From NCBI GenBank assembly GCA_963847855.1, contig CAWKBM010000002.1, positions 42,500 to 106,499 on the forward strand: 64,000 bases of DNA, read 5' to 3'. This document shows, one piece after another, positions 28,650 to 50,449 of this stretch. Numbering within the stretch: the stretch's first letter is position 1; the number at the start of each line of letters is the position of its first letter. The notes under the pieces are model-generated. The model saw nothing but the letters and a program-made list of their open reading frames with translations, did no database searches and was not told the DNA's origin. This DNA comes from an uncultured Acidimicrobiales bacterium. GTDB lineage: Bacteria > Actinomycetota > Acidimicrobiia > Acidimicrobiales > DATKAS01. A program made the translations under genes and the position numbers.

Positions 28650-28655
28650 CTCGTC

Positions 28656-33661: not shown

Positions 33662-35218
33662 GTGCGCGAACATCGGATGATGCCGGCTCCCGAGAACGCA
33701 GTCATCGTCTTGCTCGACAGCTTGAATCGCCACCTTCTCGGTGCGTACGGCGGGGACGAGTTCGCGACGCCGAACCTCGACCGGTTCGCGGCGCAATCAG
33801 TGCGGTTCACGAACCACTTCACCGGGTCACTGCCGTGCATGCCGGCGCGTCACGACATCTTGTGCGGGCAGCTCGACTTCCTCTGGAAGCCGTGGGGCTC
33901 GGTCGAGCTGTGGGAGGACACCGTCGTGTACGAGCTGCACCGCTCGGGCGTGGTCACGATGCTCGTCAGCGACCACCCTCACCTCTTCGAGACGGGCGGC
34001 GAGAACTATCACGTCGACTTCACGGGGTGGGAGTACGAGCGTGGGCAAGGCGGTGACCCGTGGAAGACGCGCGCCGATCCGTCCTACGTCGGCGCGCCAG
34101 TGTTCGGCTTCTTCCCCGTCGAGGACTACCACCGCTCGCGCGGATGGTTCGGTGGCGAGGATGGCTTTCCGGGGCCGCGCACGATGGCGCGCGCCGCTGA
34201 CTGGATCGACGAGAACGCCGGCTGGCACGACCGATTCCTGCTCTTCGTCGACGAGTTCGATCCGCACGAGCCGTTCGACACGCCCGAGGCGTACGCCTCG
34301 CTCTACGACCCGACATGGGAGGGACCGCACCTCGTGCACCCCCCGTACATGGTCGGCGCGATCGACCACGGAGAGATGACCGAGCGTCAGGGCCAGCAGG
34401 TGCGGGCGTGCTACGGAGCGAAGCTCACCATGATCGACCACTGGTTGGGCCGGGTGCTCGCCGCGATCGATCGCAACGGCTTGGCCGACTCGACTGCGGT
34501 GATCGTGTGCACCGACCACGGTCACTACCTCGGCGATCGCAGAGTGCTCGACGCCGACCGAGGGCGCACCGACATCTGGGGGAAGCCGGGGGTCCCGATC
34601 TTCGAGCCGATGGGCCACATCCCGCTGATGGTGCGCATGCCCGGCGTCCCGGGGCGTGAGTGTGATGCTCTCACGACCAGCGTGGACCTGTGCGCCACGA
34701 TCGCCGACCTCTTCGGTGTCGTGATGCGCCAGCGCACAAGCGGTCAGTCGCTGCTGCCACTCGTTCGAAGTGAGACCGCATCGGTGCGCGATTGGGCGCT
34801 GACGGGAGTTTGGGGTCGCGAGGTGCACGTGGTGGATCGGCGCGCCACCTACGCGCGCGGGCCGGCCGGCGACAACGCGCCGCTGTCGATGTGGTCGAAC
34901 CGGTGGTCGACGATGCCGACCCGCGCGCTGTCCCGTCGCGACGAGCTGCCTCTGCCGGATGGGCGCGCGCAGCTCGCTCGCATGCCTGGCTCGGACATCC
35001 CTGTGATCCGTCAGCCCTTCACCGTCGGCGATCGGCTTCCGTATTGGGCGTTGACGCGGTTCACCGGCAACCACTTGCACGATCGTGTCGAGGATCCGGA
35101 GGAGGAGCGCAACCTTGCGGGCACCAGACGCGAGGCTGAGATGGCCGAGCTGCTGCGTGTCGCGCTGCTCGAGATGGAAGCACCCGCCGATCAGCTCGTG
35201 CGCCTCGGCCTCGCTTAG
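33662..35218 (+). CDS. sulfatase family protein (formylglycine-type)
   Basis: Contains [17 protein letters not shown] and the CxPxR motif in [10 protein letters not shown]. The product is 518 aa. Confidence 0.85.
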
Positions 35219-35251: not shown

Positions 35252-35324
35252 GGGCGCTTGGCGCAGTTGGTAGCGCACCTCCCTTACAAGGAGGGGGTCG
35301 GGGGTTCGAGTCCCTCAGCGCCCA
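35252..35324 (+). tRNA. tRNA-Val (TAC)
   Basis: Acceptor GGGCGCT/AGCGCCC, D-arm GCGC-AGTTGGTA-GCGC, anticodon stem CCTCC/GGAGG with loop CTTACAA, and T-arm GGGGG-TTCGAGT-CCCTC. Confidence 0.92.
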
Positions 35325-35383
35325 CTGTCGCAGGTCAGACGCCGGGGCATCTCAACCGAGCCTCGAGGGTGCGCGAGGTCAAC

Positions 35384-35495
35384 CGCTGCCGAACGTGGCG
35401 GCCAGTCGGCGCGGGCTCATCGCGACTATCCCGTCGATGAATTGCTGGCTGGTCGGCGCGGTTGGGGCGCTGCCGAACGTGGCGGCCAGTTGGCG
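35384..35495. repeat. two 28-bp direct repeats CGCTGCCGAACGTGGCGGCCAGTYGGCG spaced 84 bp apart
   Basis: The copies are at 35384..35411 and 35468..35495, with 1 mismatch. They lie 60 nt downstream of tRNA-Val. On the minus strand they fall inside a 42-codon ORF (35379..35507): MGQARQLAATFGSAPTAPTSQQFIDGIVAMSPRRLAATFGSG. Confidence 0.8.
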
Positions 35496-35558
35496 GGCCT
35501 GGCCCATTGTCGACGACTGAGGCGTCGTGATCGGGGTCAGTCCTCTGGCTCGCGACCC

Positions 35559-36446
35559 TCACATCCCTCCGGCAGCTGAAAGACCGATGAGAAAGTCCTG
35601 CTCGGCTTCATCGAAGTCGTCGAGGTTGACGTCGAGCTTGGCTTCAGTGTCGAGGCGGCTCTGACCCTGGGCTTCGATCTGTCCGGTGAGCACGCGCCGA
35701 CCTAGCGAGTCCTTCTGAGCATTGAGCTCGGCGGATCGAGCATTGGCAGTGTCCACCAAGTTCTCAAACTGCAGCACACCATCAGGGCCCTGCTTCAGCA
35801 GCTCGTCGAGTGCGACGGCACCCTTCGCTGGCCCAGCGGTCGAGAAGAAAACCAAGGCATCAGACGCGCCGCGCGCTGCGAGGACGGCAAGATTGGCTTG
35901 GAACCTCTCAGCTGCGTCGATCTGCTCATCGAACTCCCTGGTGATGGAATCGAGGGTCGCGTTTGTTCTCGGGTCGAGCCCGTCGAGCACGGAGTTCAGC
36001 GTGGGTACGCCGGTGATGAATGCGCTCAAGAACTCTTGCGTGGCATTCGTCACCTCATCGAGCTGCGCCTGCAGCGCGTCAGACTCGAGACCCGTCTCGT
36101 CCAATGCCTCCTCAAAGAGAACCTGATCCTGCCGACCGAACCGCGTCGCACGAGTGAGATCGGCCATTGCGGTAGCTGCAATCGTCGTCTCAGGCATGCG
36201 TGTGGACGACCCCGAAGCGCTGCGCATCGCAGGCGTCCCGCGCGTCGAGTCGACCAACGGCACCGCCGGATGGGATCTCGTCGGTGTCGGCGCGCTCCTC
36301 CCGGTTCCGCCTCCCGGGTAAGCAACGACCGCCCCGACCGCCAACGCGACGACGACGGCGGCGACGCCAGGGCGGCGCGAGGGCCGCCGGGGCGGCGCAT
36401 CTGTAGTGGTGGTTGGTGGATAGATCTCGTCGCGTGTTGCTTCCAT
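35559..36446 (-). CDS. hypothetical membrane-anchored protein (~295 aa)
   Basis: ATG 36446 is preceded by GGAGG-N5. The product has a Pro/Thr-rich N-terminus, one TM segment (GVAAVVVALAVGAVVAY) and an acidic helical C-terminal domain. I recognise no family. Confidence 0.55.
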   Translation of the reverse strand: MEATRDEIYPPTTTTDAPPRRPSRRPGVAAVVVALAVGAVVAYPGGGTGRSAPTPTRSHPAVPLVDSTRGTPAMRSASGSSTRMPETTIAATAMADLTRATRFGRQDQVLFEEALDETGLESDALQAQLDEVTNATQEFLSAFITGVPTLNSVLDGLDPRTNATLDSITREFDEQIDAAERFQANLAVLAARGASDALVFFSTAGPAKGAVALDELLKQGPDGVLQFENLVDTANARSAELNAQKDSLGRRVLTGQIEAQGQSRLDTEAKLDVNLDDFDEAEQDFLIGLSAAGGM

Positions 36447-36710
36447 CGAAACCTCCGCAGGGTCAGCGTGAGGATGTGCTCGAACGAGGCGCTCTACGTC
36501 ACCAAGACGGGTGAGAACCACCGCTGACCCTGACCAGCCTCAGGGTCAGCGCTCCCACCATCAGTGCCCCGATGAGCCCGGCCGCGGCAAGCCCGAGGAG
36601 CCAGATGCGCCTCGCCGCTTCTCGGACACTGGCTCAGCGCTGGACAAGTTGGTCTCCCTTCGAATACAGCGCGGTGTCGAGCGGGATCCCTGGGGTGCGC
36701 CGTCAACGGC

Positions 36711-37295
36711 TCAGGGACAGAGCACGTTCGGGTTCCACATCGCGAACGTGCCGCTCGGGTTGAACTTCCAAATCCACGCGTGCAGTGAGTAGTAAGCCGG
36801 CAGTCCGAACCGGTTCCCCGCGGGCGTGAACATGAACTCCTGCCCGAACAGCTTCGGGGGGCCGGAGTGGGTCTGGAGCCATGTCGCCTCGTCCACGATG
36901 TACTCGAGCGCGACGAGCCGGTTGTGGCCCGCGCCGTCGGGCTCGTAGACGAGCACCTGGGGTTTGCTCGCCTCGACCATGTTGTCGAGTGCGGAGAGGT
37001 AGTGGACGCCCATCGCACCAGCGCTCGGGACGGTCGGGTCAGCGATGCAGGTGATGCCGTTGATGTCGGCGACCTGGATCGAGTAGCCCCCGCGGGCCGC
37101 GTTCTCGAAGCGCAGGAACGGAGCGGTGGCGACAGCGGCGCGGATCAGCTCCACGACCGGTCCCGGACCGCCCCGGGTGTCGTTCATCGTGCTCCCGTTG
37201 CCCATCGTGTGTGCGCTGGCCGAGGTCACCAGGCTGAGCGGCCCGGCCAAGACGGCGATGGCCGCCGCGAGCACCATGCGGTGTCGTTTCATCAT
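36711..37295 (-). CDS. hypothetical secreted protein (~194 aa)
   Basis: GAAGGAAG-N6-ATGATG leads into the signal peptide MMKRHRMVLAAAIAVLAGPLSLVTSASA. The mature part (...AGAMGVHYLSALDNMVE...YYSLHAWIWKFNPSGTFAMWNPNVLCP) matches no family I recognise. Confidence 0.6.
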   Translation of the reverse strand: MMKRHRMVLAAAIAVLAGPLSLVTSASAHTMGNGSTMNDTRGGPGPVVELIRAAVATAPFLRFENAARGGYSIQVADINGITCIADPTVPSAGAMGVHYLSALDNMVEASKPQVLVYEPDGAGHNRLVALEYIVDEATWLQTHSGPPKLFGQEFMFTPAGNRFGLPAYYSLHAWIWKFNPSGTFAMWNPNVLCP

Positions 37296-37435
37296 GTCTG
37301 TCTTCCTTCGGGTGAGGAGGTGTCGGGGGCGATCCCGGCATCCAAGGTGCGCCGCTCGCCTCACGCGCCGCTCACCCGCGCTCACGAAACGCTCACGGGA
37401 GCCGCGGAGCGCCGTCGTCAGTAGATTGGGGGGTA

Positions 37436-39535
37436 GTGGGGTGCTCCTTCGGGATCCTCGGGCCGCTCCAGGTAGTGGTCGACGGCGTTGACATCACGCC
37501 TTCTGCGCCGAAGGAACGTGCACTCCTGGCGATGCTCCTCATCAACCACGGCCAAGCCGTCAGCGTCGACCAGCTCGTGGAGGAGCTCTGGCCCAAGCTG
37601 GATGGGGACCGGGCACGCCGAGTGGTCCAGGTTCGGGCGGCCGCGCTTCGCAAGTCGCTCAGAGACGTTCAGGCGCCGGCCGCCATCGAGTTCGTCAATG
37701 CCGCGTACCGCCTGTCTGTGGCGCCGGGCGACGTCGACGCCGACCGCTTCTTGACGCTCACCGAGCGCGCTCTGGGTCAATCGCGCGGCGGGGACCCCGC
37801 CGCCGCTGCTCTCTCGCTGGCCCAGGCGCTCGGACTTTGGCGCGGCCAGCCGCTCTCCGATGTGCGAGGCGGTGTGAGCCTGGATGCCGAGGCCGCGCGC
37901 CTCGACGAGGCCCATCTGGAGGCGATCGAGGACCGGATCGATGCCGACTTGGCGTGTGGTCGGCACCGTGACTTGCTTCCGGAGCTAGACGGGCTCGTCG
38001 CCCTGTACCCCCTCCGGGAGCGGCTGTGGGGTCAACACGTCTTGGCTCTGTACCGCGACGGGAGGCAGACCGAAGCGCTACAGGCATGCGCGTCGATTCG
38101 ACGGCGGCTCGCTGACGACTGGGGCGTGGACCCTGGACCGGCGCTTCGAGCGCTCGAGACCGCCGTGCTCGAGCAGCACTGCAGTCTCGACTGGGTCGCG
38201 GTTTCCGAGGCTGGGCCACCGGGGACCCACGGCGAGTCGTCGGCGGGCGAGATCCCGGAGATTCGTTACGCCAAGGCAAAGGACGGCGTCAGCATCGCCT
38301 TTCAGGTCACGGGCGACGCGCCCACCGATCTGATCATCGTCCCGGGATACACCTCGCATCTCGAGACATGGTGGGAGGCGTGGTCCGGACGGCTCGTCCG
38401 TCGGCTCGCGTCGTTCTCCCGGCTCATCCTCTTCGACAAGCGCGGGACAGGCCTGTCCGATCGGCCGACTCGAGTCGAGCTCGATGAGTGGGTCGAGGAC
38501 GTGGGCGTCGTACTTGACGCGGTTGGGTCGGAGCGCGCAACGATCCTCGGCGTATCGGCTGGCTCACCGATCGCGATCCTCTTCGCGGCCACCTACCCCG
38601 AACGCACCCGAGCGCTCATGATCTACGGCGGATATGCCCGAGTTCTCCGGGACGACGACTACGAGTTCGGCATTCCGCCTGCGGAGTTGAACGAGGGCAT
38701 CGAGTCTCTCGAGGCTGGGTGGGGGACAGGCTCAGCGCTCAAACGGTGGTGTCCGAGCGCTCGTGACGACCCTGTCGCTCGGGAGCAGTTCGGCCGGTAT
38801 GAGCGGATCTCTGCGAGCCCGGGTGCGGCTACTGCCTACCTCAGAGTCGTGTGCGCGATCGACGTGCGTCACGCGCTCCCGATGGTGAGTGCCCCGACGC
38901 TCGTGCTGCACGCTGCTCGTGACGTCGCTACACCGATCGAGTGCGCTCGGTATGTCGCGGAGCACATACCCGATGCAACCCTCTGCGAGCTCGACAGCGC
39001 CGATCACCTGATCTGGTTCTCCGACGCGCTCGATGAGATGACGAGCCGCATGCAGGATTTCGTGACGGGATCGCCGCCTGCGTACGACGTGAACCGTGCC
39101 CTTTCGACCGTCCTCGTCGTCGAGCTGCTCGACGCGCCTCCTCGACCCGCGTCGTGCATCGATTGTGAGCTCATCGAGCGCTTCCGAGGGAGGGCAGTAC
39201 GCCGCGGACCGAAGGAAGTGGTGGCCACGTTCGACGGCCCCGGTCGGGCGATCCGCTGCGCGTTGGCGATCATCCACGACCTGCGGTCGAGAGGACTCGA
39301 TGCTCGCGCTGGTGTGCACAGCGGCGAGTGCGACGTTACGAACGGCGAGACTGGAGGTATGGCCGTTGAAATCGCCCAGCGAGTCTGCGCGCTCGCTGGG
39401 GCGGCGGAGCTGCTCGTGTCCCAGACCGTTCGCGATCTGGTTTACGGGAGCACGATCAGCTTCGGCGACCCTCGCGATGATCATCTCGACGGACTACCGC
39501 GCGACTGGCGTGTCTTTGCCGTGACCGGCGTGTGA
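37436..39535 (+). CDS. three-domain regulator: SARP/AfsR-type winged helix + BTAD, alpha/beta-hydrolase fold, degenerate class III cyclase-like domain
   Basis: The N-terminus FGILGPLQVVVDGVDITPSAPKERALLAMLL...LWRGQPLSD...LRERLWGQHVLALYRDGRQTEAL is SARP plus BTAD. The middle IRYAKAKDGVSIAFQVTGDAPTDLIIVPGY...LFDKRGTGLSD...ILGVSAGSPIA is an alpha/beta hydrolase with a GxSxG motif. The C-terminus ATFDGPGRAIRCALAIIHDLRSRGLDARAGVHSGECDV...LVSQTVRDLV...WRVFAV is cyclase-like. Confidence 0.8.
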   Translation: MGCSFGILGPLQVVVDGVDITPSAPKERALLAMLLINHGQAVSVDQLVEELWPKLDGDRARRVVQVRAAALRKSLRDVQAPAAIEFVNAAYRLSVAPGDVDADRFLTLTERALGQSRGGDPAAAALSLAQALGLWRGQPLSDVRGGVSLDAEAARLDEAHLEAIEDRIDADLACGRHRDLLPELDGLVALYPLRERLWGQHVLALYRDGRQTEALQACASIRRRLADDWGVDPGPALRALETAVLEQHCSLDWVAVSEAGPPGTHGESSAGEIPEIRYAKAKDGVSIAFQVTGDAPTDLIIVPGYTSHLETWWEAWSGRLVRRLASFSRLILFDKRGTGLSDRPTRVELDEWVEDVGVVLDAVGSERATILGVSAGSPIAILFAATYPERTRALMIYGGYARVLRDDDYEFGIPPAELNEGIESLEAGWGTGSALKRWCPSARDDPVAREQFGRYERISASPGAATAYLRVVCAIDVRHALPMVSAPTLVLHAARDVATPIECARYVAEHIPDATLCELDSADHLIWFSDALDEMTSRMQDFVTGSPPAYDVNRALSTVLVVELLDAPPRPASCIDCELIERFRGRAVRRGPKEVVATFDGPGRAIRCALAIIHDLRSRGLDARAGVHSGECDVTNGETGGMAVEIAQRVCALAGAAELLVSQTVRDLVYGSTISFGDPRDDHLDGLPRDWRVFAVTGV

Positions 39536-39774
39536 CTCCACCTTGGCACGGGCGCGGGACGGGCCGGTCTACCTCGACGAGGTGATGGCGGTCACCGCGT
39601 TGATGTAACTCGTCGACCAGCAACGACCCGTCACGGGGAGCGAACCAACGGATCCCTTCGGAGCGGACCGGGCCGGGGGTCGCGAGAAGCAGACGGCGAC
39701 ATCCAGGTGTGCATCTGACGGCGAACCAGCCGGTCCCGGCCACCGCCAGGAGCGCCGCACAACGAATCGTTCAC

Positions 39775-39890
39775 CCCCTAACTGTGCGCGTTTCGCTCAG
39801 CGCCGACCTGCGGAAACGAGGTTGAGCACAGCGCTCAGCCTCCGATGCCTTCCAAGGAGGGGGTCGGGGGTTCGAGTCCCTCAGCGCCCA
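39775..39890 (+). repeat. att-like repeat A: conserved 73-nt arm plus the tRNA-Val 3' half
   Basis: 39848..39890 equals the last 43 nt of tRNA-Val (35282..35324) with 1 mismatch. There is no matching 5' acceptor strand, so this is not a tRNA gene. Confidence 0.85.
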
Positions 39891-40075
39891 CTGATCGCAC
39901 GTCACACCTCTCGTGCGCGAGTGTCACCTCCCTTCCTTCGGGCGCACAGCGTGACTTCAACCTCGGATAGTGGTCTGCGGGCAGATCTGGCCGTGGACGC
40001 TTGCTGGGGCGCACGCGCGGTCTGCTCACTGCGTTGCATAGCTGCCTGCCTCGACACCAGCTTCGAGGTTTGGGT

Positions 40076-41782
40076 CTAGTTCGCCCGAAAGGCGGCGATC
40101 GCGTCGTCGAGCGCGGCATACACGTGGTTGCGCCCAATCAATGCGGTGAGTCCGAACTCGTCGAGTTCGGCAACCACTGGGTCGCGAGCCTCGGCAACGG
40201 CGAACACGACCCCGCGCTCGGAGAGTTGCTCCGCGAGCTCGACGAGTGTCTTTCCGCCGGTGAAGTCGACATCGTCGATTGCGTCGGCGAGGAGGACGAG
40301 CCAGCGTGGCTTGTCGGGCACGTCGACGAGTTTGAGCACCTCATCGACGAAGCGCGCCGCGTTTGCATAGAACAGTCCCACTCCGAAGCGATAGACCACC
40401 AAACCGGGCTCGGTGCTCGCACCGGGGACAGCGGGAACGCTGACGGAGCGCCCTCGCTCGTCCCGAGTGATCACCGAGTCGTGGGGGTCGTAGTGGCGCT
40501 TCACGTGGTCGAGAAGCGACATCACGATCGCGAGCAGGATCCCCTGCTCCACGCCGACGCAGACGACCACTATCGCTGTCGCTGCGGCGATCGCGAACTC
40601 GTCCCGACGCAGCCGCAGGATCTCCCGCATGTGCTTGACGTCGACGAGCTTTATTCCGATCACGAACACAACGGCGGACAGCACGGCGTTCGGCATGTAC
40701 TGGAGCGGCTTCGTCAGGAACAGGAGCACAACTGCCACGGTCGCGGCCATGGCCAGCATGGCGACCTGGGTATTGCTCTTGGCCTCGTCAGCCATCTCGG
40801 TCTTCGTGGGGCTCCCGTTGACGGGGAATGCGCTGCTGAGTCCGGCGGCGAGGTTCGCGAGGCTGAGACCGACGAGGTCGTTGTTCTCGACAAAGCGGTC
40901 CTTGTACTTGACGGCGTAGGCGCGCGAGGTCGCCGCGCTCTGAGCCAGGATGACAAGGAACATCGATACGGCGGTCGCTAGTAGGGGAACGACATCGTTC
41001 CACCCGACGCCGCTCGGCAGCCCGAGCGACGGTAGCCCGCTCGGCACCGGTCCGAGCACCGAGACGCCGTGCGACGACAGGTCGAAACCCCAGCTGACAA
41101 GAAGCGCTCCGACCACCGCGACGAGACCGCCGGGGATGGCTTTGATCCATCGCCCGAACACCAGGAGCGTGACGATCACGGACACCGACACCGCCAGGGT
41201 CGTGATCGACGTGTCGGGAATCTCCTTCAGGGTGTCCCAGAACTTGACGAGATTGCCGCCCACCCGATTCAGGTCGACAGTCGGAGAGGCGACTCCGAGC
41301 ATGCCTGCGAACTGGCCCAGCGCGACCTGGATTCCGACGCCCGTGAGGAAGCCAACCAGCACAGTCCGCGAGATGAAGTCGGCCAGGAAGCCCAGTCGGG
41401 CGACGCGGGCAACGAGCAGGAGCACGCCGGTGATCAGGGCGGCCAGACTCGCGTAGGCGAGCCACTCATTCGTTCCCGGCTGCAGTCCCGCGACACCGAG
41501 CCCCGCGATGCCGGCGTAGAGGATCGCCGCCGTTGCCGAGTCGCCGCCGACGACGAGATGGCGCGAGGAGCCGAGTACGGCGAACACGACTGCCGGGAGC
41601 AGGATCGTGTATAGCCCGGTGATGACAGGGGTGCCCGCGATCTTGGTGTAGCCCATGACCTCGGGAATCGCGAGCGCCGCAAGCGTGACGCCGGCGACGA
41701 TGTCTCGGGACAAGAGGGAGTGGTCGTATGGCCGGATTCCTTGGAGCACGGTGACGTACCTCCCGACCCCGGTTCTCGACAT
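40076..41782 (-). CDS. SulP family anion transporter with C-terminal STAS domain
   Basis: The real start is M68 of the listed ORF: MSRTGVGRYVTVLQGIRPYDHSLLSRDIVAGVTLAALAIPEVMGYTKIAGTPVITGLYT.... The C-terminal part PGLVVYRFGVGLFYANAARF...VVFAVAEARDPV is STAS-like. Confidence 0.88.
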   Translation of the reverse strand: MSRTGVGRYVTVLQGIRPYDHSLLSRDIVAGVTLAALAIPEVMGYTKIAGTPVITGLYTILLPAVVFAVLGSSRHLVVGGDSATAAILYAGIAGLGVAGLQPGTNEWLAYASLAALITGVLLLVARVARLGFLADFISRTVLVGFLTGVGIQVALGQFAGMLGVASPTVDLNRVGGNLVKFWDTLKEIPDTSITTLAVSVSVIVTLLVFGRWIKAIPGGLVAVVGALLVSWGFDLSSHGVSVLGPVPSGLPSLGLPSGVGWNDVVPLLATAVSMFLVILAQSAATSRAYAVKYKDRFVENNDLVGLSLANLAAGLSSAFPVNGSPTKTEMADEAKSNTQVAMLAMAATVAVVLLFLTKPLQYMPNAVLSAVVFVIGIKLVDVKHMREILRLRRDEFAIAAATAIVVVCVGVEQGILLAIVMSLLDHVKRHYDPHDSVITRDERGRSVSVPAVPGASTEPGLVVYRFGVGLFYANAARFVDEVLKLVDVPDKPRWLVLLADAIDDVDFTGGKTLVELAEQLSERGVVFAVAEARDPVVAELDEFGLTALIGRNHVYAALDDAIAAFRAN

Positions 41783-41787
41783 ACCGT

Positions 41788-44307
41788 TTATCCCGACAGT
41801 CCCTGGCCGTGGCGGCGCTCTGGCCGGTCGAGCCGGCGCGGTCGCGAGGCGGACCGCGGCGTCGGATCTGGCGGGGAGGGTGTCCGCGCGGTGACGGGAT
41901 CGAGGAACCGATAGGCAAGCAGCTTCAGCCGGTCGTTCAGCAGGAACCAGGCCAGGGCGTAGCCCCAGACGAACAGCGCCCAACCCCAGCCGAGTGGGGT
42001 CATGAACACGCCGTACACGGCGATGAGCGTCGCCAGCGTCTGGGTGCCGAACACCGCGATCAGCACGACCCGAGCTGGGCGTGGTGTCGACCAGAACGGG
42101 CCGCGGGTGCGGGTCAGGAAGATCGTCAGGTGTCCTGCAACAGACAGCTTGAGGTACATCAGGGTCTGGATGTGGTCACGATCGAGATCGAAGACACGCT
42201 CACCGAGGTAGAAGAGACCGAAGGCGGAGACGACCCCGATGAGGCCGAGCACCGTGGCAATGCCGAGGACCACGCGCATGTTCCACGCCTCGGGTTGTTG
42301 CTTGTAGTGCACGTTGTCGTAGGCGATGGACAAGATGGCGCCATCGTTCAGCAATGCCAAGATCACGATCATCACGGGGGTCAGCGGATAGAAGTCGAAG
42401 ATCAGGATCGCCAAGGTGATGAACAACAGCACGCGCAGCGTCTCGGCGATGCGGTAGATCGCGTAGCTGTTCATCCGCTGGAAGATCTTCCGGCTCTCCT
42501 TGATCGCGTCGACGATCACCGACAGGCCGGGTGTGGTGAGCACGATGTCGGCGGCGGCGCGCGCCGCGTCGGTCGCGCTCGACACGGCGATGCCGCAGTC
42601 GGCCTTCTTCAATGCCGGGGCGTCGTTCACCCCATCGCCGGTCATGCCGACGATGTGGCCACGCTGTTGGAGGACATCGACGATGTGAAACTTGTGTTCC
42701 GGGAATACCTGGGCGAACCCGTCGGCCTCGTCGATGGCCTCTGCCGCCGACGCGGTCTCATCGTGTTTCACGTCGCCGAGGGTGGTGGCGTCGAGGATGT
42801 CGGAACCCATCCCGAGCTTCTTGGCGGTCTCCTGGGCGATCGCCAACGCGTCGCCTGTCACCATCTTGATCGTGACGCCCATCTGTTGGGCGGTGGCGAT
42901 GGTCGCTGCGGCGTCGTCGCGTGGGGGGTCGAACAGAGGCAGCACGCCGAGGAACTGCCAGTCGCCGTCGCCGTCGGATCGGGCCACACCGAGCGAACGA
43001 AAGCCGCGGGCCGCGAAGTCGTTGACCGCTGCGTCGACGCTCGGTTGCACCTGGGCCGCGTTGGCGGCCAAAGCCAAGATGACTTGCGGCGCGCCCTTCG
43101 TCACCTTGAACGCAACGCCGTCGGCCTCGTCGACGGCGGCCTCGGTGCGCTTGCGCACCGCGTCGAACGGGTCGAAGTGGCTGACCTGGTAGGAGCGCAG
43201 GGCGTGGTCGTCGGGCAGGGCTGCGAGAACGGCCCGGTCGATCGGGTCGTCGTTGTCGGCCCGCGAGGCCAGCGCACCGCACAGGATGACCTGCTCGACG
43301 GTCACGCCGTTCACCGGAAACGGGTCCCCGAGCGTCAAGGAGTTCTGGGTCAAGGTGCCCGTCTTGTCGGTGCACAAAACGTCCGCGCCGGCCAGCTCCT
43401 CGATGGCCGCCAGCCGGCTGACGATCGCCTGCTTCCTGGCCAGCTGGCGGGCGCCGACGGCCATCGTGACCGACAGCACCGTGGGCATCGCCACCGGGAT
43501 CGCGGCGACGGTGAGCACCAGCGCGAACTGCACCGTCGTGAGGATCGGGTCGCCGCGCACGAGCGCAACGGTGATGATCACCGCCACGAGCGCGGCCGCG
43601 AGGACGATGAGGTAGTTGCCGATCTTGAGGACGGCCCGCTGAAAGTGGCTGACGGTGCGCGCCTGTTGCACCAGCTCTGTCGTCTTGCCGAAGTAGGTGG
43701 AGGCGCCAGTGGCATAGACCAGGGCGTTGATCTCGCCCTGGCGGATGATCGACCCGGAGAACACCGCCTCGCCAGGTTGGCGGGTGGCCGGCAACGATTC
43801 GCCCGTCAGCGCGGACTGGTCCACCTCGAGGGGGTCGCCCTCGAGCAGGCGGGCATCGGCCGGGACGATGTCGCCCAGTCGCACGCGGATGACGTCACCG
43901 GGTACGAGTTCGCGTGCCGCGGGGGTGATCCAGTTCCCGTCGCGCTTCACCCGGGCCTTGATCGCCAGGTTGGCCTTCAGGGCGTCGATGGCGTTGCCCG
44001 CCTGGCGCTCCTCCCAGAACCCGACGACTGCGTTCGCGACGAGCAGCACCAGGATGATGAAGAGGTCCGCCCAGTGCCCTGCGACGCCCGACAGGATCAC
44101 CGCAATCTCGATCATCCATGGGATCGGCCCCCACAGGTAGGTGAGGAACTTCAGGAACGGGTTGGCCTTCGTCTCGGCGATCTCGTTGGGCCCGTAGCGG
44201 TCCAGTCGCTTTTCGGCCTCCGATTGGCTGAGCCCGTCCGCCGAACACTCCAGACGCTGTTTGACCTCTTCTAGAGGAAGCGATTGCAGGTCGGCGTCGG
44301 CGCTCAC
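41788..44307 (-). CDS. P-type cation-transporting ATPase (plasma-membrane H+-ATPase-like, type III)
   Basis: Carries the motifs ALTGESLP, CTDKTGTLTQN, MVTGD and GDGVNDAPALKKAD. The N-terminus is LEEVKQRLECSADGLSQSEAEKRLDRYGPNEI. The start is GTG 44307, or alternatively ATG 44421. The stop lies 5 nt before the SulP start. Confidence 0.9.
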   Translation of the reverse strand: MSADADLQSLPLEEVKQRLECSADGLSQSEAEKRLDRYGPNEIAETKANPFLKFLTYLWGPIPWMIEIAVILSGVAGHWADLFIILVLLVANAVVGFWEERQAGNAIDALKANLAIKARVKRDGNWITPAARELVPGDVIRVRLGDIVPADARLLEGDPLEVDQSALTGESLPATRQPGEAVFSGSIIRQGEINALVYATGASTYFGKTTELVQQARTVSHFQRAVLKIGNYLIVLAAALVAVIITVALVRGDPILTTVQFALVLTVAAIPVAMPTVLSVTMAVGARQLARKQAIVSRLAAIEELAGADVLCTDKTGTLTQNSLTLGDPFPVNGVTVEQVILCGALASRADNDDPIDRAVLAALPDDHALRSYQVSHFDPFDAVRKRTEAAVDEADGVAFKVTKGAPQVILALAANAAQVQPSVDAAVNDFAARGFRSLGVARSDGDGDWQFLGVLPLFDPPRDDAAATIATAQQMGVTIKMVTGDALAIAQETAKKLGMGSDILDATTLGDVKHDETASAAEAIDEADGFAQVFPEHKFHIVDVLQQRGHIVGMTGDGVNDAPALKKADCGIAVSSATDAARAAADIVLTTPGLSVIVDAIKESRKIFQRMNSYAIYRIAETLRVLLFITLAILIFDFYPLTPVMIVILALLNDGAILSIAYDNVHYKQQPEAWNMRVVLGIATVLGLIGVVSAFGLFYLGERVFDLDRDHIQTLMYLKLSVAGHLTIFLTRTRGPFWSTPRPARVVLIAVFGTQTLATLIAVYGVFMTPLGWGWALFVWGYALAWFLLNDRLKLLAYRFLDPVTARTPSPPDPTPRSASRPRRLDRPERRHGQGLSG

Positions 44308-44521
44308 GCGGGACCGTGCCGAGCTGGAGCGGCGGCGGCCACGGGCCGGCGCCCCACGATGGCTGACAGGGTGCGGGCCACACTCACCACCTCGTTCGGT
44401 CCGCGGACCGAGATTCAGCATCGCAGTCTCGCCCCGCGACGGGGAAGGGACCTTGGGCACTTCCCTCGACACTTCCGACGCGACACGCTGGATGAACGAA
44501 CACTCGGTGTGAGGGAGGCCG

Positions 44522-45363
44522 ATGCTGGAGCGCATCCTGGTCGGGGTTGACGGCTCGACCCAAGCAGCTGGCGCCGAGACGTGGGCGGCGCGCCTCGCGC
44601 GGGATCTCGGCGCGCGGCTCGTGGTCGCCAGCGTGTGGGGACCGAGTCGCGCGGAGCTGCCTCAAGCCGAGAAGCGCGTGGAACGAGACCACGCGCTTCG
44701 CCTCCTGCAGGAATCGTGGACCCAGCCGGCGCACCTGAGCACTGACCCGGTCGAGTCAGTACTCCTCGACGGTTACAGCCCTTACGCGCTGCTCGAGGCA
44801 GCCGATCGCATCGAGGCCGACCTGGTCGTGGTGGGCACCCGGGGACGCGGCGGGTTCGCCGGGCTGCGGGTCGGCAGCTTCTCGGACTATGTCACCCACC
44901 GGACTACGCGCCCCTCGCGGTCATCCCGGCGGAGGCCAAGCCGGGCGTGGACAGAGTTGTGGTCGGACTCGATGGCTCCGACGGCGATCCGTGGGTCGTG
45001 GGCATGTGCATTGCGCTGGCGGAGCCGCTCGGTGCGGACGTGGTCGCCGTGTATGCACATCGCCCGCACCGCGACTGGCTGGGATCACTACCCGAAGACT
45101 GGGAGATACGGGGGCGCGCGGCGCTGGACGATTGGACCTCGCCGTTGCGCGATGCCGGCGTCACCGTCGATACGCGTCTCGTCGAGACCGACCACGCCGC
45201 TGATGCCCTGCTCGAGGTCGCGGCCGAGGTGAACGTCGACGCGATCGTCATCGGCACCCGCGAGTTCAGCGGTTACCGGCCCCTGCGCCTCGGCGGGGTC
45301 ACGATGGCGCTCGTGCACCACAGCGACCGGCCGGTGATCATCGTCCCTCCCCCCGAGCGATGA
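44522..45363 (+). CDS. tandem universal stress protein domains; one frameshift near 44912
   Basis: The first domain reads MLERILVGVDGSTQAAGA...VVVGTRGRGGFAGLRVGSFSDYVTHRTTRP. A 1-nt deletion follows. The second domain reads LAVIPAEAKPGVDRVVVGLDGSDGD...IVIGTREFSGYRPLRLGGVTMALVHHSDRPVIIVP. Confidence 0.85.
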
Positions 45364-45513
45364 CGGACGGATTTCGCCGGCAGCGACGGGACGGCCCGGT
45401 CGTCGCCGCTCGCCCATCCCGTTCGACGTCGCTCGTGACCTCCGACCCTTCCGCTTTCCGTCCCCGACGGCGCACCCTGTGAGGAAGTCGCCCACCACGA
45501 AAGGAGCCAGACC

Positions 45514-46356
45514 GTGAGACGTGTCCTGGTCGGTTTCGACGGTTCGTCAGCCGCCGGCGACGCCCTCGCTTGGACGGCCGATCTGGCCTGGCGCGCCCGG
45601 CTCGAGCTGGTCGTCGCCCGCGTGTTCGTCCCCACCCAGGCCGAGATCTCCCCCGACTTCAACGTCGAGCTTCACGACGCGCAGCGCCGCGAGCTCGATG
45701 AGTGGTCCGCGCGTCCCCCCGGACAGGCGGTTCCGACCGCCACCGTCCTGCTCGATGGCGACCCCCCAGACGCGCTGCTGGCCGTCGCTCGCGACCGGCA
45801 CGCCGACCTCCTCGTCGTCGGAGGCCGCGGCGCCGGGGGCTTCTCGCACCTGCACCTAGGCAGCGTCGCCCACCACCTCGCGCACCACACCACGATCCCC
45901 CTGGCCATCGTGCCCCGCAGCGGCGCCGCACCTGTGAGCCATCTTGTCGTCGGTGTCGACGGGTCACCCAGGAGCCTGGCGGCCATCGACGTGTCCGCCG
46001 AGCTCGCTGTCCGCCTCGAGGTCGGGGTCACCGCCGTGTACGCCTTCGAGCCGCTTGCCGAGTGGGTGCCCGAAACCGACCCCCGCAGCTGGCATCACCA
46101 AGCAGAAGCCTACGTTCGCCAGTGGGCAGCGCCGATCGAGAAGGCCGGCGTGACCGTCGACATCGACGTCGACCGCGACATCCACCCGGTCGCCGCGATC
46201 GCCCGCGCCCTCGACGCCCACCCTGGGTCGGCGGCGTGTGTCGGTACCCGCGGCCTGGGCGGATTCACAGATCTCCGACTTGGCCGTGTCCCCCTCCAGC
46301 TCGTCCACCACACCGGCGCGGCCGTGATCCTGGTGCCACCTGCATCGAACCCATGA
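45514..46356 (+). CDS. tandem universal stress protein domains
   Basis: AAAGGAG-N7-GTG leads into MRRVLVGFDGSSAAGDA...VVGGRGAGGFSHLHLGSVAHHLAHHTTIPLAIVP, then a second domain VVGVDGSPRS...GTRGLGGFTDLRLGRVPLQLVHHTGAAVILVP. Confidence 0.88.
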   Translation: MRRVLVGFDGSSAAGDALAWTADLAWRARLELVVARVFVPTQAEISPDFNVELHDAQRRELDEWSARPPGQAVPTATVLLDGDPPDALLAVARDRHADLLVVGGRGAGGFSHLHLGSVAHHLAHHTTIPLAIVPRSGAAPVSHLVVGVDGSPRSLAAIDVSAELAVRLEVGVTAVYAFEPLAEWVPETDPRSWHHQAEAYVRQWAAPIEKAGVTVDIDVDRDIHPVAAIARALDAHPGSAACVGTRGLGGFTDLRLGRVPLQLVHHTGAAVILVPPASNP

Positions 46357-46438
46357 CGACACCGGCGTGGTTTCTCGTGGCCCATGGGTTCCGCCGTACG
46401 TCGGCGTCACGCCACGCGCGGGTGGGCACTGAACTCAA

Positions 46439-46551
46439 CCCCTAACTGTGCGCGTTTCGCTCAGCGCCACCTGCGGAAAGGAGTTGAGCACAGCGCTCAG
46501 CCTCCGACGCCTTACAAGGAGGGAGTCGGGGTTCGAGTCCCTCAGCGCCCA
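46439..46551 (+). repeat. att-like repeat B: the same arm plus the tRNA-Val 3' half
   Basis: By eye there are about 7 differences from repeat A over ~116 nt. The tRNA-homologous part 46510..46551 has 1 substitution and a 1-nt deletion relative to tRNA-Val. Confidence 0.85.
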
Positions 46552-46622
46552 CCGGTCGTGCTCATTTGTTGCCGCTGCAGAAACGGGGCGTCATCGAACA
46601 TCATCTACTCGACCAATGCGAT

Positions 46623-46692
46623 CCGCGGCGTCGGATCCGGCGGGGAGGGTGTCTGCGCGGTGACGGGGTCGAGGAACCGATAGAGCAGCGGA
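46623..46692 (-). pseudogene. 3'-terminal remnant of a second P-type ATPase gene
   Basis: 61 nt (46623..46683) match 41854..41914 with 3 mismatches. They encode LLYRFLDPVTAQTPSPPDPTPR, against LLAYRFLDPVTARTPSPPDPTPR at the end of the intact ATPase. Homology stops within a few codons on either side. Confidence 0.7.
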
Positions 46693-46873
46693 CTGCACGC
46701 GTTTGACCGTCCGGCGCCCTCGCTGCGAGTGCGCCGACCGAGCTCGAGGTCGTGCGAGGGGCCGCCCCGTCGGGCGGAGTTGAGGAAGGGCTCAGCCCGG
46801 TCGCTCCAGTTCACCTCTCATTTGGTTTCACTCGGACCGCCCCGGGTAACAGCCTGCCGACCGGGAGGCAACC

Positions 46874-47317
46874 GTGACTGATGTGATCTCGATGCTTCAA
46901 CAGGACCATCGCGAAGTCGAAGGTCTGTTCGCGCAGATCAAAGTGACCGACGGCGACGCGCGAGGTCAGCTGGTCTCGAAGTTGGCCGCCAAGGTCCGGT
47001 TGCACATGCAGGTCGAGGAAGCAATCGTCTACCCGGCCGTCGCGCGTCAGGTCGATGACGGCGACGACATGGTGCACGACGCGAGGGCCGACCATGACGA
47101 CGCCCGCAGGGTGCTCGCAGACGTCGAGCGGCTACCGCCCGACGACCCCCGCTTCGACGGAGCGCTCGCGCTGCTCGAAACGGGCATCGCCTACCACGTC
47201 GAGGAGGAGGAGGACGAGATCTTTCCCTCCCTCCGTGAAGCGGCGACCGCCGAGGAGCTCGACGCTCTCGGCGAGACAGTCGCCGCAGCGAAAGGAAGCG
47301 CCCGCGCCTCAGCCTGA
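46874..47317 (+). CDS. hemerythrin-domain protein
   Basis: Contains MTDVISMLQQDHREVEGLFAQI...HMQVEEAIVYPA...HVEEEEDEIFP, a pattern of His/Glu metal ligands. Confidence 0.8.
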   Translation: MTDVISMLQQDHREVEGLFAQIKVTDGDARGQLVSKLAAKVRLHMQVEEAIVYPAVARQVDDGDDMVHDARADHDDARRVLADVERLPPDDPRFDGALALLETGIAYHVEEEEDEIFPSLREAATAEELDALGETVAAAKGSARASA

Positions 47318-47708
47318 CCACCATCGCTTTGAAGCGAAGGAGTCGACCTGGGCGGCGGGGCGAAGCAGGGCGGCACCAACGGCTCCAGGCGAGGCGGCGA
47401 GGGGCAGGGCGACCGCGAAGAAGAGCTGACGAATGCCTGGACGTTCGGCGGCTCCACGAGATCGGACCAACAATGGATTCGTCGCCGCCGTCTGGCCGAT
47501 GGCGTGCAGAGGTCCCCACCGCTCCTGGGGGGCGACAGGCGGACTCGCTGATCGAAGAGTGGGCGCCCAGACGCGGAGTGGCGAAGCAAACTCGCTGACT
47601 GTTCGGGAGCAAAGAGGACGACGGGCTCATGGGCTGATGGGAGCGCGCTGCGATCGCGCGCGCGATGGATCGACGATCGGAAGAGCATCCATCCCGCAGA
47701 TCAGCGGC

Positions 47709-48506
47709 CTATCGGTCGTGGCCTTCACCCTCACCCTGTGCCGCGTTCTGCTCTTGGGCTCTCGGGTGGCCATGGATGACGGTGACCAGCAGGGCGGCGC
47801 AGAGAGCGCCGACGATCGGCGCTGTCACATAGATCCATTGATCTTGGCCGATGCCCGCGACGATGGCGGGCCCGAGCGAACGAGCTGGGTTCATCGAGGC
47901 GCCGGAGACGGCGATCCCGATCAGGCCTGCGGCAGCGATCGTGGCGCCGACCGCGAGGGCTGCGTCTGGCCCGACGAGCTGATGTTGGGTCGCGGTGCTG
48001 AGGATCACCATGACAAGCAGCAGAGTGAGGAGGACTTCGAACCCGAAGCTTTGCCACTGCCCGCCTGTGGGGTGGGTGGTTCCTTGATCGCCGACCGGGT
48101 CGAACAAGGCGTGAAGCGTGGCGGCGGCGGCCAGGGCGCCGCCGAGTTCGGCGCCGATGTACGCCGGGACCCATCGCCACGGGAACACGGTGCGAGCCGC
48201 GAACGCGATCGTTACGGCAGGGTTGAGGTGAGCGCCCGAGATCGAGCCGAACGAGTAGATCATCGCTGCGACGATGAGGGCGGGTGCGATCGCCCGGGCC
48301 GCCACCGGGACTTGGCCGGGGTGGAGCTCGGCGAGGATGTCGGCGCCTGCGGCGGCGAGCACGAGAAAGAAGGTGCCCGCGGCCTCAGCGGTCAGCCGGC
48401 GAAGCGCACTGAGATCAGCGTCGAGCTCGGCGGATCTGAACCTCGCCTCGGTCGGGCGATCGTTCGCCGACCGGATGCCGCTTCTCCCGCGGGTACCCAC
48501 GACCAC
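47709..48506 (-). CDS. MIP/aquaporin family channel
   Basis: Two NPA boxes are present (GAHLNPAVT and GASMNPARS). The start is GTG 48506 or 48500, preceded by AGGAGG. Confidence 0.88.
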   Translation of the reverse strand: MVVGTRGRSGIRSANDRPTEARFRSAELDADLSALRRLTAEAAGTFFLVLAAAGADILAELHPGQVPVAARAIAPALIVAAMIYSFGSISGAHLNPAVTIAFAARTVFPWRWVPAYIGAELGGALAAAATLHALFDPVGDQGTTHPTGGQWQSFGFEVLLTLLLVMVILSTATQHQLVGPDAALAVGATIAAAGLIGIAVSGASMNPARSLGPAIVAGIGQDQWIYVTAPIVGALCAALLVTVIHGHPRAQEQNAAQGEGEGHDR

Positions 48507-48577
48507 AGCCGGATCCTCCTGGCGTTGCCATACCCTGCAACCGGCGGCGGAGACGTGGGAACTTCCGCGAGCGAGGG

Positions 48578-49212
48578 TCAGGGGCTGAGGCGTAGGTCGA
48601 CGACGGCTTGTGCGATCTCGCGGAGGGGAAGGTGGTTGTTGCGGGCGTGACGGCGGAGGATGGCGAACTCTTCGTCGAGGGTGATGCTGCGTTGTCCGGC
48701 GAGGATGCCTTTGGCTTGCTCGATGACGATGCGAGTTTCGAGCGCCTCCGCGAGCTGTTCGTTCACCCTGCGGGCTTGGTCGAGGTCCGTAGGCGTGGGC
48801 GACGTAGCCGGTAGCGATGTCGGCGAGCACTCGCCGCGACAGTGAGCTCGTCGGGCAGCCATTGCCTGGGCGTCGAGTCGTAAACGTTCAGCGCACCGAA
48901 CGGGCGGTTGTTCAACACCATCGGGATCCCGACGACGGAGACCATTCCGGCCTGGCGAGCGGCGGTCCCGTAGTCCGGCCATTCGTCGCGGCCAGTGAGG
49001 TCGGTGACGGCGACAATCTCGCCGGTCGTGTAGGCCTCGTGGCATGGGCCTTGCTGGCTTTCCGCCTGGACTTGCTCGAGACCGCCGATGGCTTCGTTGG
49101 TCGCGGTCACGAAGCGCAGAAGGCCCTCGCTGTCGCCGACGCTCACCCCGGCTCTCGCGGCGCCGAGCAGCTCGGCTGTGCCGTCGCTGAGCTCGAACAG
49201 GACCGCGGACAC
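48578..49212 (-). CDS. GAF-ANTAR RNA-binding regulator; at least 2 frameshifts, N-terminus unresolved
   Basis: The GAF part is in ORF 48763..49212 (...LRFVTATNEAIGGLEQVQAESQQGPCHEAY...GALNVYDSTPRQW). The linker LADIATGYVAHAYG is in a second frame. The ANTAR part LDQARRVNEQLAEALETRIVIEQAKGILAGQRSITLDEEFAILRRHARNNHLPLREIAQAVV is in a third. LLDVLTQFARTLAGRYD upstream of 49212 has no in-frame start codon. Confidence 0.75.
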
Positions 49213-49456
49213 GTCGTAGCGGCCAGCGAGAGTGCGCGCGAACTGCGTGAGGACGTCGAGCAGTCGCGCCGAGCGCGCAGGTGGTCAGGGTCCTGGCGCT
49301 CACCGGATGCGACGTGCCGTTCACGATCGTCGCAAGCGACGTTGCGCCCAGCAACGGGACTCCGACACCCGGTTAGCACGACGGACCAACCTGGCGGTAT
49401 CGGACGATTCGCGTCCGGGGTACCAGTGGGCCATCGCACGACGAAAGGAGCCCGCT

Positions 49457-49708
49457 GTGCCCGGCGAGTCTGCGCACGTGAAGAACGAGAAGCAGTATGA
49501 AGCCCTCAAGGACAAGGGGATGTCGAAGGACCGCGCCGCGAAGATCGCGAACTCGCCCGATGCGTCCAAGCACGGCGGCGAGCGGTCACACAAGGGCGGC
49601 GGAAGCTCCAAGCAAGGCGGCACGACCGCGCAACACAAGGCGGCGGGACGCAAGGGAGGTAAGGCGACCGCGAAGAAGAATTTGAAGGGACGGCCCCACC
49701 ACCCGTGA
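49457..49708 (+). CDS. small basic protein (83 aa) with an N-terminal KxYEALxDKGMSKxRAAKIAN motif and a KGG-rich tail
   Basis: GAAAGGAG-N6-GTG leads into VPGESAHVKNEKQYEALKDKGMSKDRAAKIANSPDASKHGGERSHKGGGSSKQGG.... Homologues of this kind are usually annotated only as conserved hypothetical or plasmid-stabilisation-like proteins. Confidence 0.6.
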   Translation: MPGESAHVKNEKQYEALKDKGMSKDRAAKIANSPDASKHGGERSHKGGGSSKQGGTTAQHKAAGRKGGKATAKKNLKGRPHHP

Positions 49709-49804
49709 CCGTGCGATTTTCGCTCAGAGATGATCTAGGGAAATGCCGGTGAGCCCGAGGGCTCAGTTTCTGATGCCCTACAAGGACGTGGTCGGGGGTT
49801 CGAG
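49707..49804 (+). repeat. att-like repeat C: strongly diverged copy of the arm plus the tRNA-Val anticodon-to-T-loop segment
   Basis: The blocks GTGCG-TTTCGCTCAG, GGAAA, TGAGC, GCTCAG, GATGCC, CAAGGA and GGTCGGGGGTTCGAG are shared with A and B in the same order. Homology ends inside the T-arm. Confidence 0.65.
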
Positions 49805-49837
49805 CACGCCGGGCCGGCGTCGACTCGTCGATTCGCG

Positions 49838-50236
49838 TCAGTCGACTGGCCAGAGGAGCCCGGCGTTGGCGGCCGCAACTTCGATTGCATCGACGAGGCG
49901 CTCGGGAGAGCCGCCGCACATCTCGAGCTCATCGGGACCCAGCAGCACGTACACGGCTCCGTCGGCAGTCTCGGCCACCACGACCGGAGCGGTCCCGGCC
50001 GCGAGTCGTACGGGCTCGGGCTGATCGTCGCGGTGATAGGTGGCGAGGCGCACCGGCAGCCGCTCGCGACATTCCCGCCATTCCGCACGTTCCCGTACGC
50101 GTCCGTGGGTGATGTCGCAGAGTGCGCAGTGAGCTCGGCCGATCGTCGCCCGCAACAGGTACGAGAGCTCGCCGAGAGCGGACCCGTCTGCGTTGTACAC
50201 GCCCACCAAGCGCTCCACGGTGGCGGACGTGTTCAC
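49838..50236 (-). CDS. hypothetical protein (~132 aa)
   Basis: GTG 50236 opens VNTSATVERLVGVYNADGSALGELSYLLRATIGRAHCALCDITHGRVRERAEW.... The composition is coding-like but I recognise no family. Confidence 0.5.
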   Translation of the reverse strand: MNTSATVERLVGVYNADGSALGELSYLLRATIGRAHCALCDITHGRVRERAEWRECRERLPVRLATYHRDDQPEPVRLAAGTAPVVVAETADGAVYVLLGPDELEMCGGSPERLVDAIEVAAANAGLLWPVD

Positions 50237-50449
50237 GGCGCGAGCATCGTACGCCACGAGGCAAGCTGGCGAACGCGGCCGTGATGGCGGCGATCCCTCC
50301 GAGCATCGGAACGAAGAACAGGCTGGCACTGCCCTGTTCTGTCAACCCTCCTCAGCCTGATTCGCACGACGTCATCTTCCTGTCAACACCGGCTGAATCT
50401 TGACCCCTTTCCACCGGCTGAAAGTTGACCCCTTCGGCCGGGTCGGTGG

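Follow-up and report, generated by a model that had tools for sequence, protein, structure and literature searches.

Serial site-specific insertion at tRNA genes is a well-documented way in which genomic islands are built, and the classic site layout of a tRNA-targeting integrase is a block of identity that runs from the anticodon loop past the 3' end of the tRNA (PMC4383910). In Prochlorococcus, tandem elements are separated by partial tRNAs, and most of the island DNA is not a recognisable element (10.1101/2020.12.28.424599). Cis-mobilizable elements (CIMEs) keep their att sites, lack integration genes, and are moved by the integrase of a related element after accretion (PMC5704250). Hotspots of horizontal gene transfer (HGT) that lack an integrase are also frequent, and homologous recombination is often held responsible for them (PMC5635113). 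Here we describe a locus to be compared with these systems. It lies in a 64,000-nucleotide stretch of DNA (the window) from an uncultured soil Acidimicrobiales bacterium (assembly GCA_963847855.1, contig CAWKBM010000002.1, positions 42,500 to 106,499 of the forward strand), where an intact tRNA-Val gene is followed by three further copies of its 3' half, each joined to the same arm; we call the arm together with its tRNA half a unit and the DNA between units a module. With modest confidence, we read the region as a tRNA-anchored flexible island formed by CIME-like accretion of integrase-less modules, in which the unit would be a composite att site served in trans.

We called tRNAs across the ~64-kb window with ARAGORN and Rfam, and protein domains with Pfam. 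The tRNA anchor and the three units are as follows:

35252-35325, + strand, intact tRNA-Val(TAC) (ARAGORN; Rfam tRNA, 71.5 bits)
39775-39905, + strand, unit A: arm 39775-39847, tRNA-Val 3' half 39848-39890, conserved tail 39891-39905
46439-46566, + strand, unit B: arm 46439-46509, tRNA-Val 3' half 46510-46551, then the tail
49702-49804, + strand, unit C: diverged arm 49702-49775, tRNA-Val half 49776-49804, ending after the T-loop (nhmmer E=2e-27)

The 43-nt 3' part of tRNA-Val (35282-35324) is present three more times, always in the same orientation, and every copy is preceded by a homologous arm of ~73 nt. In all three units the tRNA half begins in the anticodon loop. The half in unit A has one mismatch (A35>C, in the anticodon), the half in unit B has one substitution and one deletion, and the half in unit C has three mismatches, with similarity stopping in the T-loop. 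Arms A and B align with 69 matches, 2 mismatches and 2 gaps. Copy C had been described as a set of ordered blocks, and so it is: its arm is identical to arm A at 53 of 74 positions (27% diverged). The conserved sequence blocks of the unit are TAAC, GTGCG, TTTCGCTCAG, GGAAA and GAGCNCAGCGCTCAG. When we searched the window with a pattern for the arm, exactly three sites were found, namely the units, against zero expected from 100 shuffles. The feature is real and beyond chance, and the initial annotation, an earlier reading of this DNA from its letters alone, was right about the three same-orientation copies and their shared arm, in position as well as in mismatches. It gave the unit too short a length, 116 nt. 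Because units A and B match the tRNA locus until ~15 nt beyond the tRNA 3' end, the unit is ~130-135 nt long and consists of the 73-nt arm, the 43-nt tRNA half and a 15-20-nt tail. Each window unit follows a + strand gene in the same orientation. Convergent gene ends, which had been reported around all three repeats, flank units A and C only; unit B is not between convergent genes because the Pfam-supported hemerythrin gene downstream of it (46874-47317) is on the + strand. The arm of unit C overlaps the stop codon of a DUF7218 gene (49232-49708).

We scanned one genome per species, 185,579 bacterial and archaeal species altogether, with the arm-only pattern. Matches came from just two uncultured Acidimicrobiales metagenome-assembled genomes (MAGs), CAVTEI010000003.1 and CAVXAI010000016.1. 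Every match in these MAGs was the arm followed by a tRNA-Val 3' half, 92-98% identical to unit A, and the surrounding DNA was unrelated. The copies were co-oriented and confined to one tract per genome, as judged from exact-pattern matches, so that diverged copies elsewhere in those genomes are possible. In metagenomes, a first pattern gave no matches, and a looser pattern gave at least six real loci among the 120 matches listed (L050/L069 and L027/L009/L037/L030; handles of this form are ours). The L050/L069 loci (SXGS01030542.1 and SXGU01224412.1) hold at least three units, 1.0-1.2 kb apart, and another MAG, L138, holds three. L136, from a strain nearly identical to CAVTEI (98.6% at the nucleotide level over 8 kb), carries extra units that the exact pattern missed; the CAVTEI lineage therefore has at least nine units over at least 64 kb. 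Arms in the related arrays were 90-99% identical. A generic dispersed repeat, of the repetitive extragenic palindromic (REP) or miniature inverted-repeat transposable element (MITE) kind, is rejected by this distribution, since the units are clustered, co-oriented and anchored at tRNA-Val. The BLAST-type check for spread of the unit that had been proposed earlier comes out in the same way, with clustered tRNA-Val arrays in relatives and not scattered loci.

The arrays are anchored at orthologous tRNA-Val genes. Sulfatase orthologues with 85-89% amino acid identity directly precede tRNA-Val in the CAVTEI MAG (L127: sulfatase 10001-11554, tRNA-Val 11619-11694, first unit 19362-19496) and in L128, a JGI contig. 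In both, this proximal flank is conserved and similarity to the window ceases at the end of the tRNA. The window aligned with L127 at 79-81% nucleotide identity over 13 kb, from 22.1 kb to 35.34 kb, and the alignment ended at position 35338, just past the tRNA. The closer relative, L128 (sulfatase 89% identical in amino acids), diverges from the window right after the tRNA.

The unit itself is strongly conserved. Arm A is identical to the arms of CAVTEI units U1 and U4 at 72 of 73 positions, though the syntenic core of the two genomes is only ~80% identical. Arms within one genome differ by at most 7 of 73 positions, and the T-loop variant in the units is genome-specific (GAGT in the window, GAAT in CAVTEI and CAVXAI). 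The decay gradient A<B<C that the initial annotation had pointed out exists in the window, but it is not a general rule, as in CAVTEI five units, distributed across at least 55 kb, each show 0-1 mismatch when compared with the tRNA half of that genome. Judged from these sequence comparisons, the strong arm conservation and the lack of a gradient in CAVTEI argue against neutral scars; the same facts are compatible with a recombination site being under constraint or with modules from a shared pool turning over rapidly.

Cargo, on the other hand, was essentially unrelated between genomes. The classes seen were ion transport, universal stress proteins, hemerythrins, an aquaporin, STAND NTPases and P450s. 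The end of the BTAD gene of module 1 together with unit A (window 39438-39904) is 88% identical at the nucleotide level to L138 14988-15279; after this shared unit, the window has SulP and ATPase genes and L138 has methyltransferase, glyoxalase and TetR genes. L027, L009/L030 and L037 have one unit and its downstream DNA in common and carry three different upstream sequences, which diverge at a sharp boundary at the left edge of the arm. These junctions, in the window/L138 pair and in the L027 group, show that rearrangement breakpoints coincide with units. In L050/L069, each inter-unit interval contains one paralogous secreted fn3/RCC1-repeat gene on the opposite strand, an arrangement that looks like local duplication of gene-plus-unit segments. 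A smaller difference concerns the 88%-identical module end, where ~170 nt between the BTAD stop and unit A (window 39536-39775) have no counterpart in L138 and represent an indel.

The arm is also joined to other tRNA halves. Units of a second type, and homologues of the arm in the L027 group, were located as follows:

L136 5145-5241 (= L005 111-208), Arg-type unit
L140 6627-6687, Arg-type unit
L140 13504-13597, Arg-type unit
L027 1310-1387, arm homologue
L037 2052-2129, arm homologue
L030 5275-5353, arm homologue
L009 18-95, arm homologue

In the Arg-type units (L140, L005/L136), a diverged arm that retains the blocks TAAC, TCGCTC and TTGAGCNCAGCGCTC is followed by a tRNA-Arg(TCT) 3' half, which likewise starts in the anticodon loop; the two units in L140 are 6.9 kb apart. 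The T stems of the Arg-type halves show a compensatory difference, GGAGG/CCTCC versus GCAGG/CCTGC, which indicates that the halves were copied from functional tRNAs. The arm homologues of the L027 group are 83% identical over 61 nt, and the core that follows them is not recognisable as a tRNA half, having an anticodon-loop-like CTCGTAA and no clean T arm. One arm coupled to different tRNA 3' halves would be expected of a diversifying family of att sites and their recombinases.

We examined the modules and flanks of the window for genes that might move them. The content is given below, with insertion sequence abbreviated as IS, open reading frame as ORF and helix-turn-helix as HTH:

33662-35218, + strand, sulfatase gene, the conserved chromosomal flank upstream of the tRNA (Pfam Sulfatase, E=1e-28)
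35326-39774, module 1: 35559-36521 (- strand) and 36711-37385 (- strand), both without a Pfam hit; BTAD/alpha-beta-hydrolase regulator 37436-39535 (+ strand)
39906-46438, module 2 (Pfam): SulP/STAS transporter 40076-41983 (- strand); P-type ATPase 41788-44535 (- strand); universal stress proteins 44522-45232 and 45514-46356 (both + strand)
46567-49701, module 3 (Pfam): hemerythrin 46874-47317 (+ strand); MIP aquaporin 47709-48830 (- strand); ANTAR regulator 48578-49354 (- strand); DUF7218 protein 49232-49708 (+ strand)
49805-52700, putative distal edge: ORF without a Pfam hit 49838-50329 (- strand); IS21 remnant with IstB 50626-51378 (- strand) and an IstA-like HTH protein 51406-52665 (- strand)

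No tyrosine or serine recombinase, excisionase or relaxase was detected by Pfam on all plausible ORFs between 33.6 and 54.5 kb. Widening the search to most of the alternative-frame segments (60 aa or longer) from the unannotated stretches gave no family at E<=0.5. PDB sequence searches with the two unknown tRNA-proximal proteins returned nothing. Over 22-35 kb, the window shares synteny with a relative in which that part, too, has no recombinase. An overlooked recombinase in the window is rejected on these Pfam and PDB searches; its absence, first remarked upon in the initial annotation, is confirmed and extends to every related array seen. Of the three outcomes which that annotation had named as fatal to its reading, none occurred: the unit was not dispersed, the same cargo was not encountered without repeats in the relatives seen, and these searches found no missed recombinase. 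No module examined contained a replication module (primase, helicase or polymerase). The annotation was also correct in placing a broken IS21 just past copy C, with IstB and the IstA-like HTH protein at 50626-52665. The IstB-like ATPase is intact by Pfam, and the 419-aa IstA-like ORF has HTH domains only, with no rve/DDE match. The GC content of the array is 65-69%, like that of the flanks.

We also asked whether the units behave as structured RNA. No unit matched an Rfam family, whether at the gathering score or at E<=5, and ARAGORN does not call the units as tRNAs. The RNAalifold consensus reached only -8 kcal/mol, and single-sequence z-scores ranged from -2.5 to +0.7. We counted pairs in a tRNA-like cloverleaf with an extended D arm over 17 distinct units, a small and closely related sample, and 71% of cells showed pairing for the anticodon-like stem, against 44-73% for the acceptor-like stem. 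Apart from GCTCA/TGAGC or TGAGC/GCTCA, which never vary on both sides, no helix was well kept. A tRNA pseudogene or tRNA-like RNA is rejected, with ARAGORN and Rfam negative and the cloverleaf helices not kept. The arm as a diverged tRNA-Val 5' half with insertions was rejected as well, since the similarity was marginal (shuffle p 0.005-0.09, depending on the pair) and not significant for unit C, L050 or the Arg type. What is conserved is a set of sequence blocks and not a fold, which suggests recognition of the DNA by a protein.

In the reading we favour, modules of ~1 to >10 kb would have been inserted serially into the 3' half of tRNA-Val by site-specific recombination, the crossover lying within the anticodon loop or close to it. 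The copy brought by the incoming DNA would restore the tRNA, and tRNA-Val 35252-35325 would accordingly be an attL-like junction between the chromosomal 5' half and a renewed 3' half. The older 3' half would be displaced downstream, fused to the right-end arm of the incoming module, and a unit would combine the attR of one module with the left end of the module that follows. The modules would behave like CIMEs, being mobile only if a recombinase from a helper element or from the chromosome acts on the units, and homologous exchange between units probably adds to the reshuffling. The proposal of the initial annotation that the locus is the footprint of serial insertion at one tRNA gene gains from the arrays at orthologous tRNA-Val genes, the synteny break, the differences in cargo and the clustering of units. 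Because the analysis turned up neither a cognate recombinase nor an attP-bearing element nor an empty site, we infer the integration step itself and, with it, the recombination reaction, the position of the crossover and the trans-acting recombinase.

Several observations weigh against serial insertion by such a recombinase. It does not predict the Arg-type unit that lies inside the tRNA-Val array of L136, nor does the uniform quality of the five CAVTEI units suit the ageing of successive insertions. The ~1.1-kb modules of L050/L069, with one gene each and paralogous to one another, are more like local duplications or cassettes than like decayed integrative and conjugative elements (ICEs) or phages. 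No recombinase came to light in the window or in ~130 kb of related array DNA in eight genomes or contigs (Pfam scans and precomputed annotations). The arm was on no phage, plasmid or viral contig among the records scanned, so that this candidate for an attP donor is rejected, and neither an empty tRNA-Val site nor a circular junction was seen.

Some of these points would be met by an explanation in which the units are now portable homology: an integrase would have seeded the array long ago, and RecA-dependent recombination between the ~135-nt units, through DNA uptake (for instance by transformation) and unequal crossing-over, would reshuffle it with no site-specific recombinase. No recombinase was found in the window or in related arrays, as this explanation supposes; the units, at 90-99% identity over ~130 nt, are similar enough for homologous exchange; the paralogous single-gene modules of L050/L069 resemble the products of unequal crossing-over; the native-like GC of the cargo implies that the donors were close relatives; and many integrase-less HGT hotspots show raised homologous recombination (PMC5635113). 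However, it leaves unexplained why the non-coding arm is 72/73 identical between genomes that are ~80% identical elsewhere, why the C, Arg-type and L027-type units, diverged as they are, still have the arm blocks, and why different tRNA 3' halves, all beginning in the anticodon loop, are coupled to the arm. We regard it as unlikely, although it deserves serious consideration. Somewhat less credible to us is a dedicated cassette system, a tRNA-anchored analogue of integrons. In such a system, a host-encoded recombinase that recognises the 73-nt arm plus tRNA half would take up integrase-less modules, each with one gene or several, and would stack and reshuffle them at tRNA-Val and, for the sister arm, at tRNA-Arg. 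Room for it is left by several long arrays without a recombinase, the strong conservation of the arm, the single-gene modules and the Arg-type unit in a Val array. An integron attC-like site is ruled out on anatomy. The RYYYAAC and GTTRRRY ends of attC are not matched by the unit, whose ends, read directly, are CYCTAAC... and ...GCGCCCAC, and there is no end-to-end inverted repeat and only a weak consensus fold where attC forms a hairpin. Nothing like dif, the 28-bp XerC/XerD site at the borders of Xer-dependent modules (IMEX / pdif modules), was noticed on reading the unit, for which no formal dif scan was run.

Two explanations remain. The units might be a functional RNA or a transcript signal, such as a 3' untranslated region stabiliser, a processing site or a tRNA-like regulatory RNA, that spread with its genes, with the link to tRNA-Val being historical. 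The very high sequence conservation of the arm would then be natural, as would the position of each window unit behind a + strand gene; moreover, almost every copy contains a short TGAGC/GCTCA hairpin, with some changes compatible with wobble pairing, and the L050 lineage has a stem-loop, ACCTGC-N6-GCAGGT. The lack of any Rfam match, the weak consensus fold and the loss of the cloverleaf speak against it, as do the opposite-strand neighbouring genes in L050/L069 and the restriction of units to arrays behind a tRNA gene. The initial annotation had kept open that the arm and tRNA-like end are themselves functional RNA, and Rfam, folding and the pair counts lend this no support; we judge it very unlikely. 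Its other suggestion, a fossil array, would make the repeats inert, decaying scars of old integrative elements that lost their integrases by deletion. Unit C, with its shortened tRNA half and 27%-diverged arm, the A<B<C order of decay in the window, and the erosion indicated by the IS21 remnant and a shortened gene fragment by copy B are what such a history would leave behind. A 72/73 match would not be expected of neutral DNA in genomes whose syntenic genes are ~80% identical, nor would scars show 0-1 mismatch in five CAVTEI units with no gradient, or be kept in every array while the cargo has been turned over completely between relatives. This disfavours the fossil array, to which we assign the slimmest chance of all.

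Other repeats lie within the island. A 28-nt direct repeat (35384-35411 and 35468-35495, 96% identical, 84-nt spacing) is inside the 234-bp gap right after tRNA-Val, the position expected for the left end (P' side) of the newest module. Two copies of another direct repeat, 66-70 nt long and 91-92% identical, occur at 41854-41923, where the stop of the P-type ATPase is on one side and the start region of SulP on the other, and at 46623-46689, ~70 nt after unit B and upstream of the hemerythrin gene. Because their reading frames differ, this repeat is probably non-coding, either a regulatory element or what is left of a duplicated module edge. As listed, the ORFs for SulP and the P-type ATPase share ~195 nt, and the SulP start probably lies downstream of the first TTG. 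In a unit of L136 at ~19000-19040 (minus strand), the last ~13-14 nt of the tRNA end are tandemly duplicated, TCAGCGCCCACAAT being followed by TCAGCGCCCACAAG, perhaps through slippage or as a relic of recombination at the 3' end of the tRNA.

On the proximal side of the island, the first 22 kb of the window hold housekeeping genes (MreB/MreC/PBP2/RodA, RNase E/G, Obg). A tRNA-Asn and tRNA-Met pair (28577-28730), 6.5 kb upstream, is syntenic with CAVTEI (L127 6341-6495) and has no associated repeats or variable DNA. On the distal side, an operon for thiamine pyrophosphate (TPP) enzymes starts at 52784, beyond the IS21 remnant. Its orthologues do not adjoin tRNA-Val in the relatives examined, and a MarR/TetR gene that stands ahead of the operon in relatives is missing in the window.

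The mode of island building that we propose is already known; what is unusual here is that none of the related arrays yielded a recombinase. Should the units be active recombination sites served in trans, this lineage would offer a view of how large flexible islands without integrases assemble and reshuffle, a question that is also open for many HGT hotspots in which no mobile element can be recognised. Should they be nothing but scars, we are dealing with an ordinary, though unusually tidy, tRNA-associated island. The conserved unit provides a handle with which to search for the cognate recombinase and to catalogue the accessory genes of a poorly known group of soil Acidimicrobiales.

Among described systems, the Islander islands and the tycheposons of Prochlorococcus share the geometry of this locus, with an intact tRNA at one end, displaced 3' fragments in direct orientation and older insertions pushed outward (PMC4383910; 10.1101/2020.12.28.424599); in the window this feature is present with halves at 39848, 46510 and 49776. 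In those islands, as here, most of the DNA is not a recognisable element. Both are defined by an integrase, usually of the tyrosine and less often of the serine type, and tycheposons have replication modules in addition, whereas neither was seen in these arrays; unlike in both, every fragment here bears the same strongly conserved 73-nt arm. CIMEs and similar accretion products, such as ICESt1/CIME of Streptococcus thermophilus and the PAISt modules of Streptomyces, are att-flanked, lack integration and transfer genes and accumulate at the end of a target gene through site-specific accretion (PMC5704250, PMC4057263). The present modules resemble them in that each is bordered by tRNA-derived repeats and encodes neither a recombinase nor a relaxase. 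CIMEs adjoin or are related to an identifiable ICE or integrative and mobilizable element (IME) with an integrase, whereas no helper was found here, and the present arrays are longer (at least nine units) and are kept as a feature across several genomes.

Integron arrays are similar to ours in being chromosomal, in their heterogeneous and mostly adaptive modules, in a recurring site-like element of ~60-140 nt, in that some modules hold a single gene (~1.1 kb) and in an order that differs by genome. In integrons, the tyrosine recombinase IntI adjoins the array together with attI and Pc; here there is neither an IntI gene nor attI, and the genes upstream of tRNA-Val are housekeeping genes or the sulfatase. 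The imperfect palindrome of attC (R''/L''-L'/R') is absent from the unit, which is instead derived from a tRNA, and, unlike integron cassettes, the modules are often multi-gene, of mixed orientation and presumably equipped with their own promoters. Finally, the hotspots of Oliveira et al. 2017 (PMC5635113) are, like this locus, highly variable intervals between conserved genes, next to a tRNA and without an integrase. Those hotspots are explained by homologous recombination in the flanking core genes, whereas here the hotspot is partitioned by conserved units of its own.

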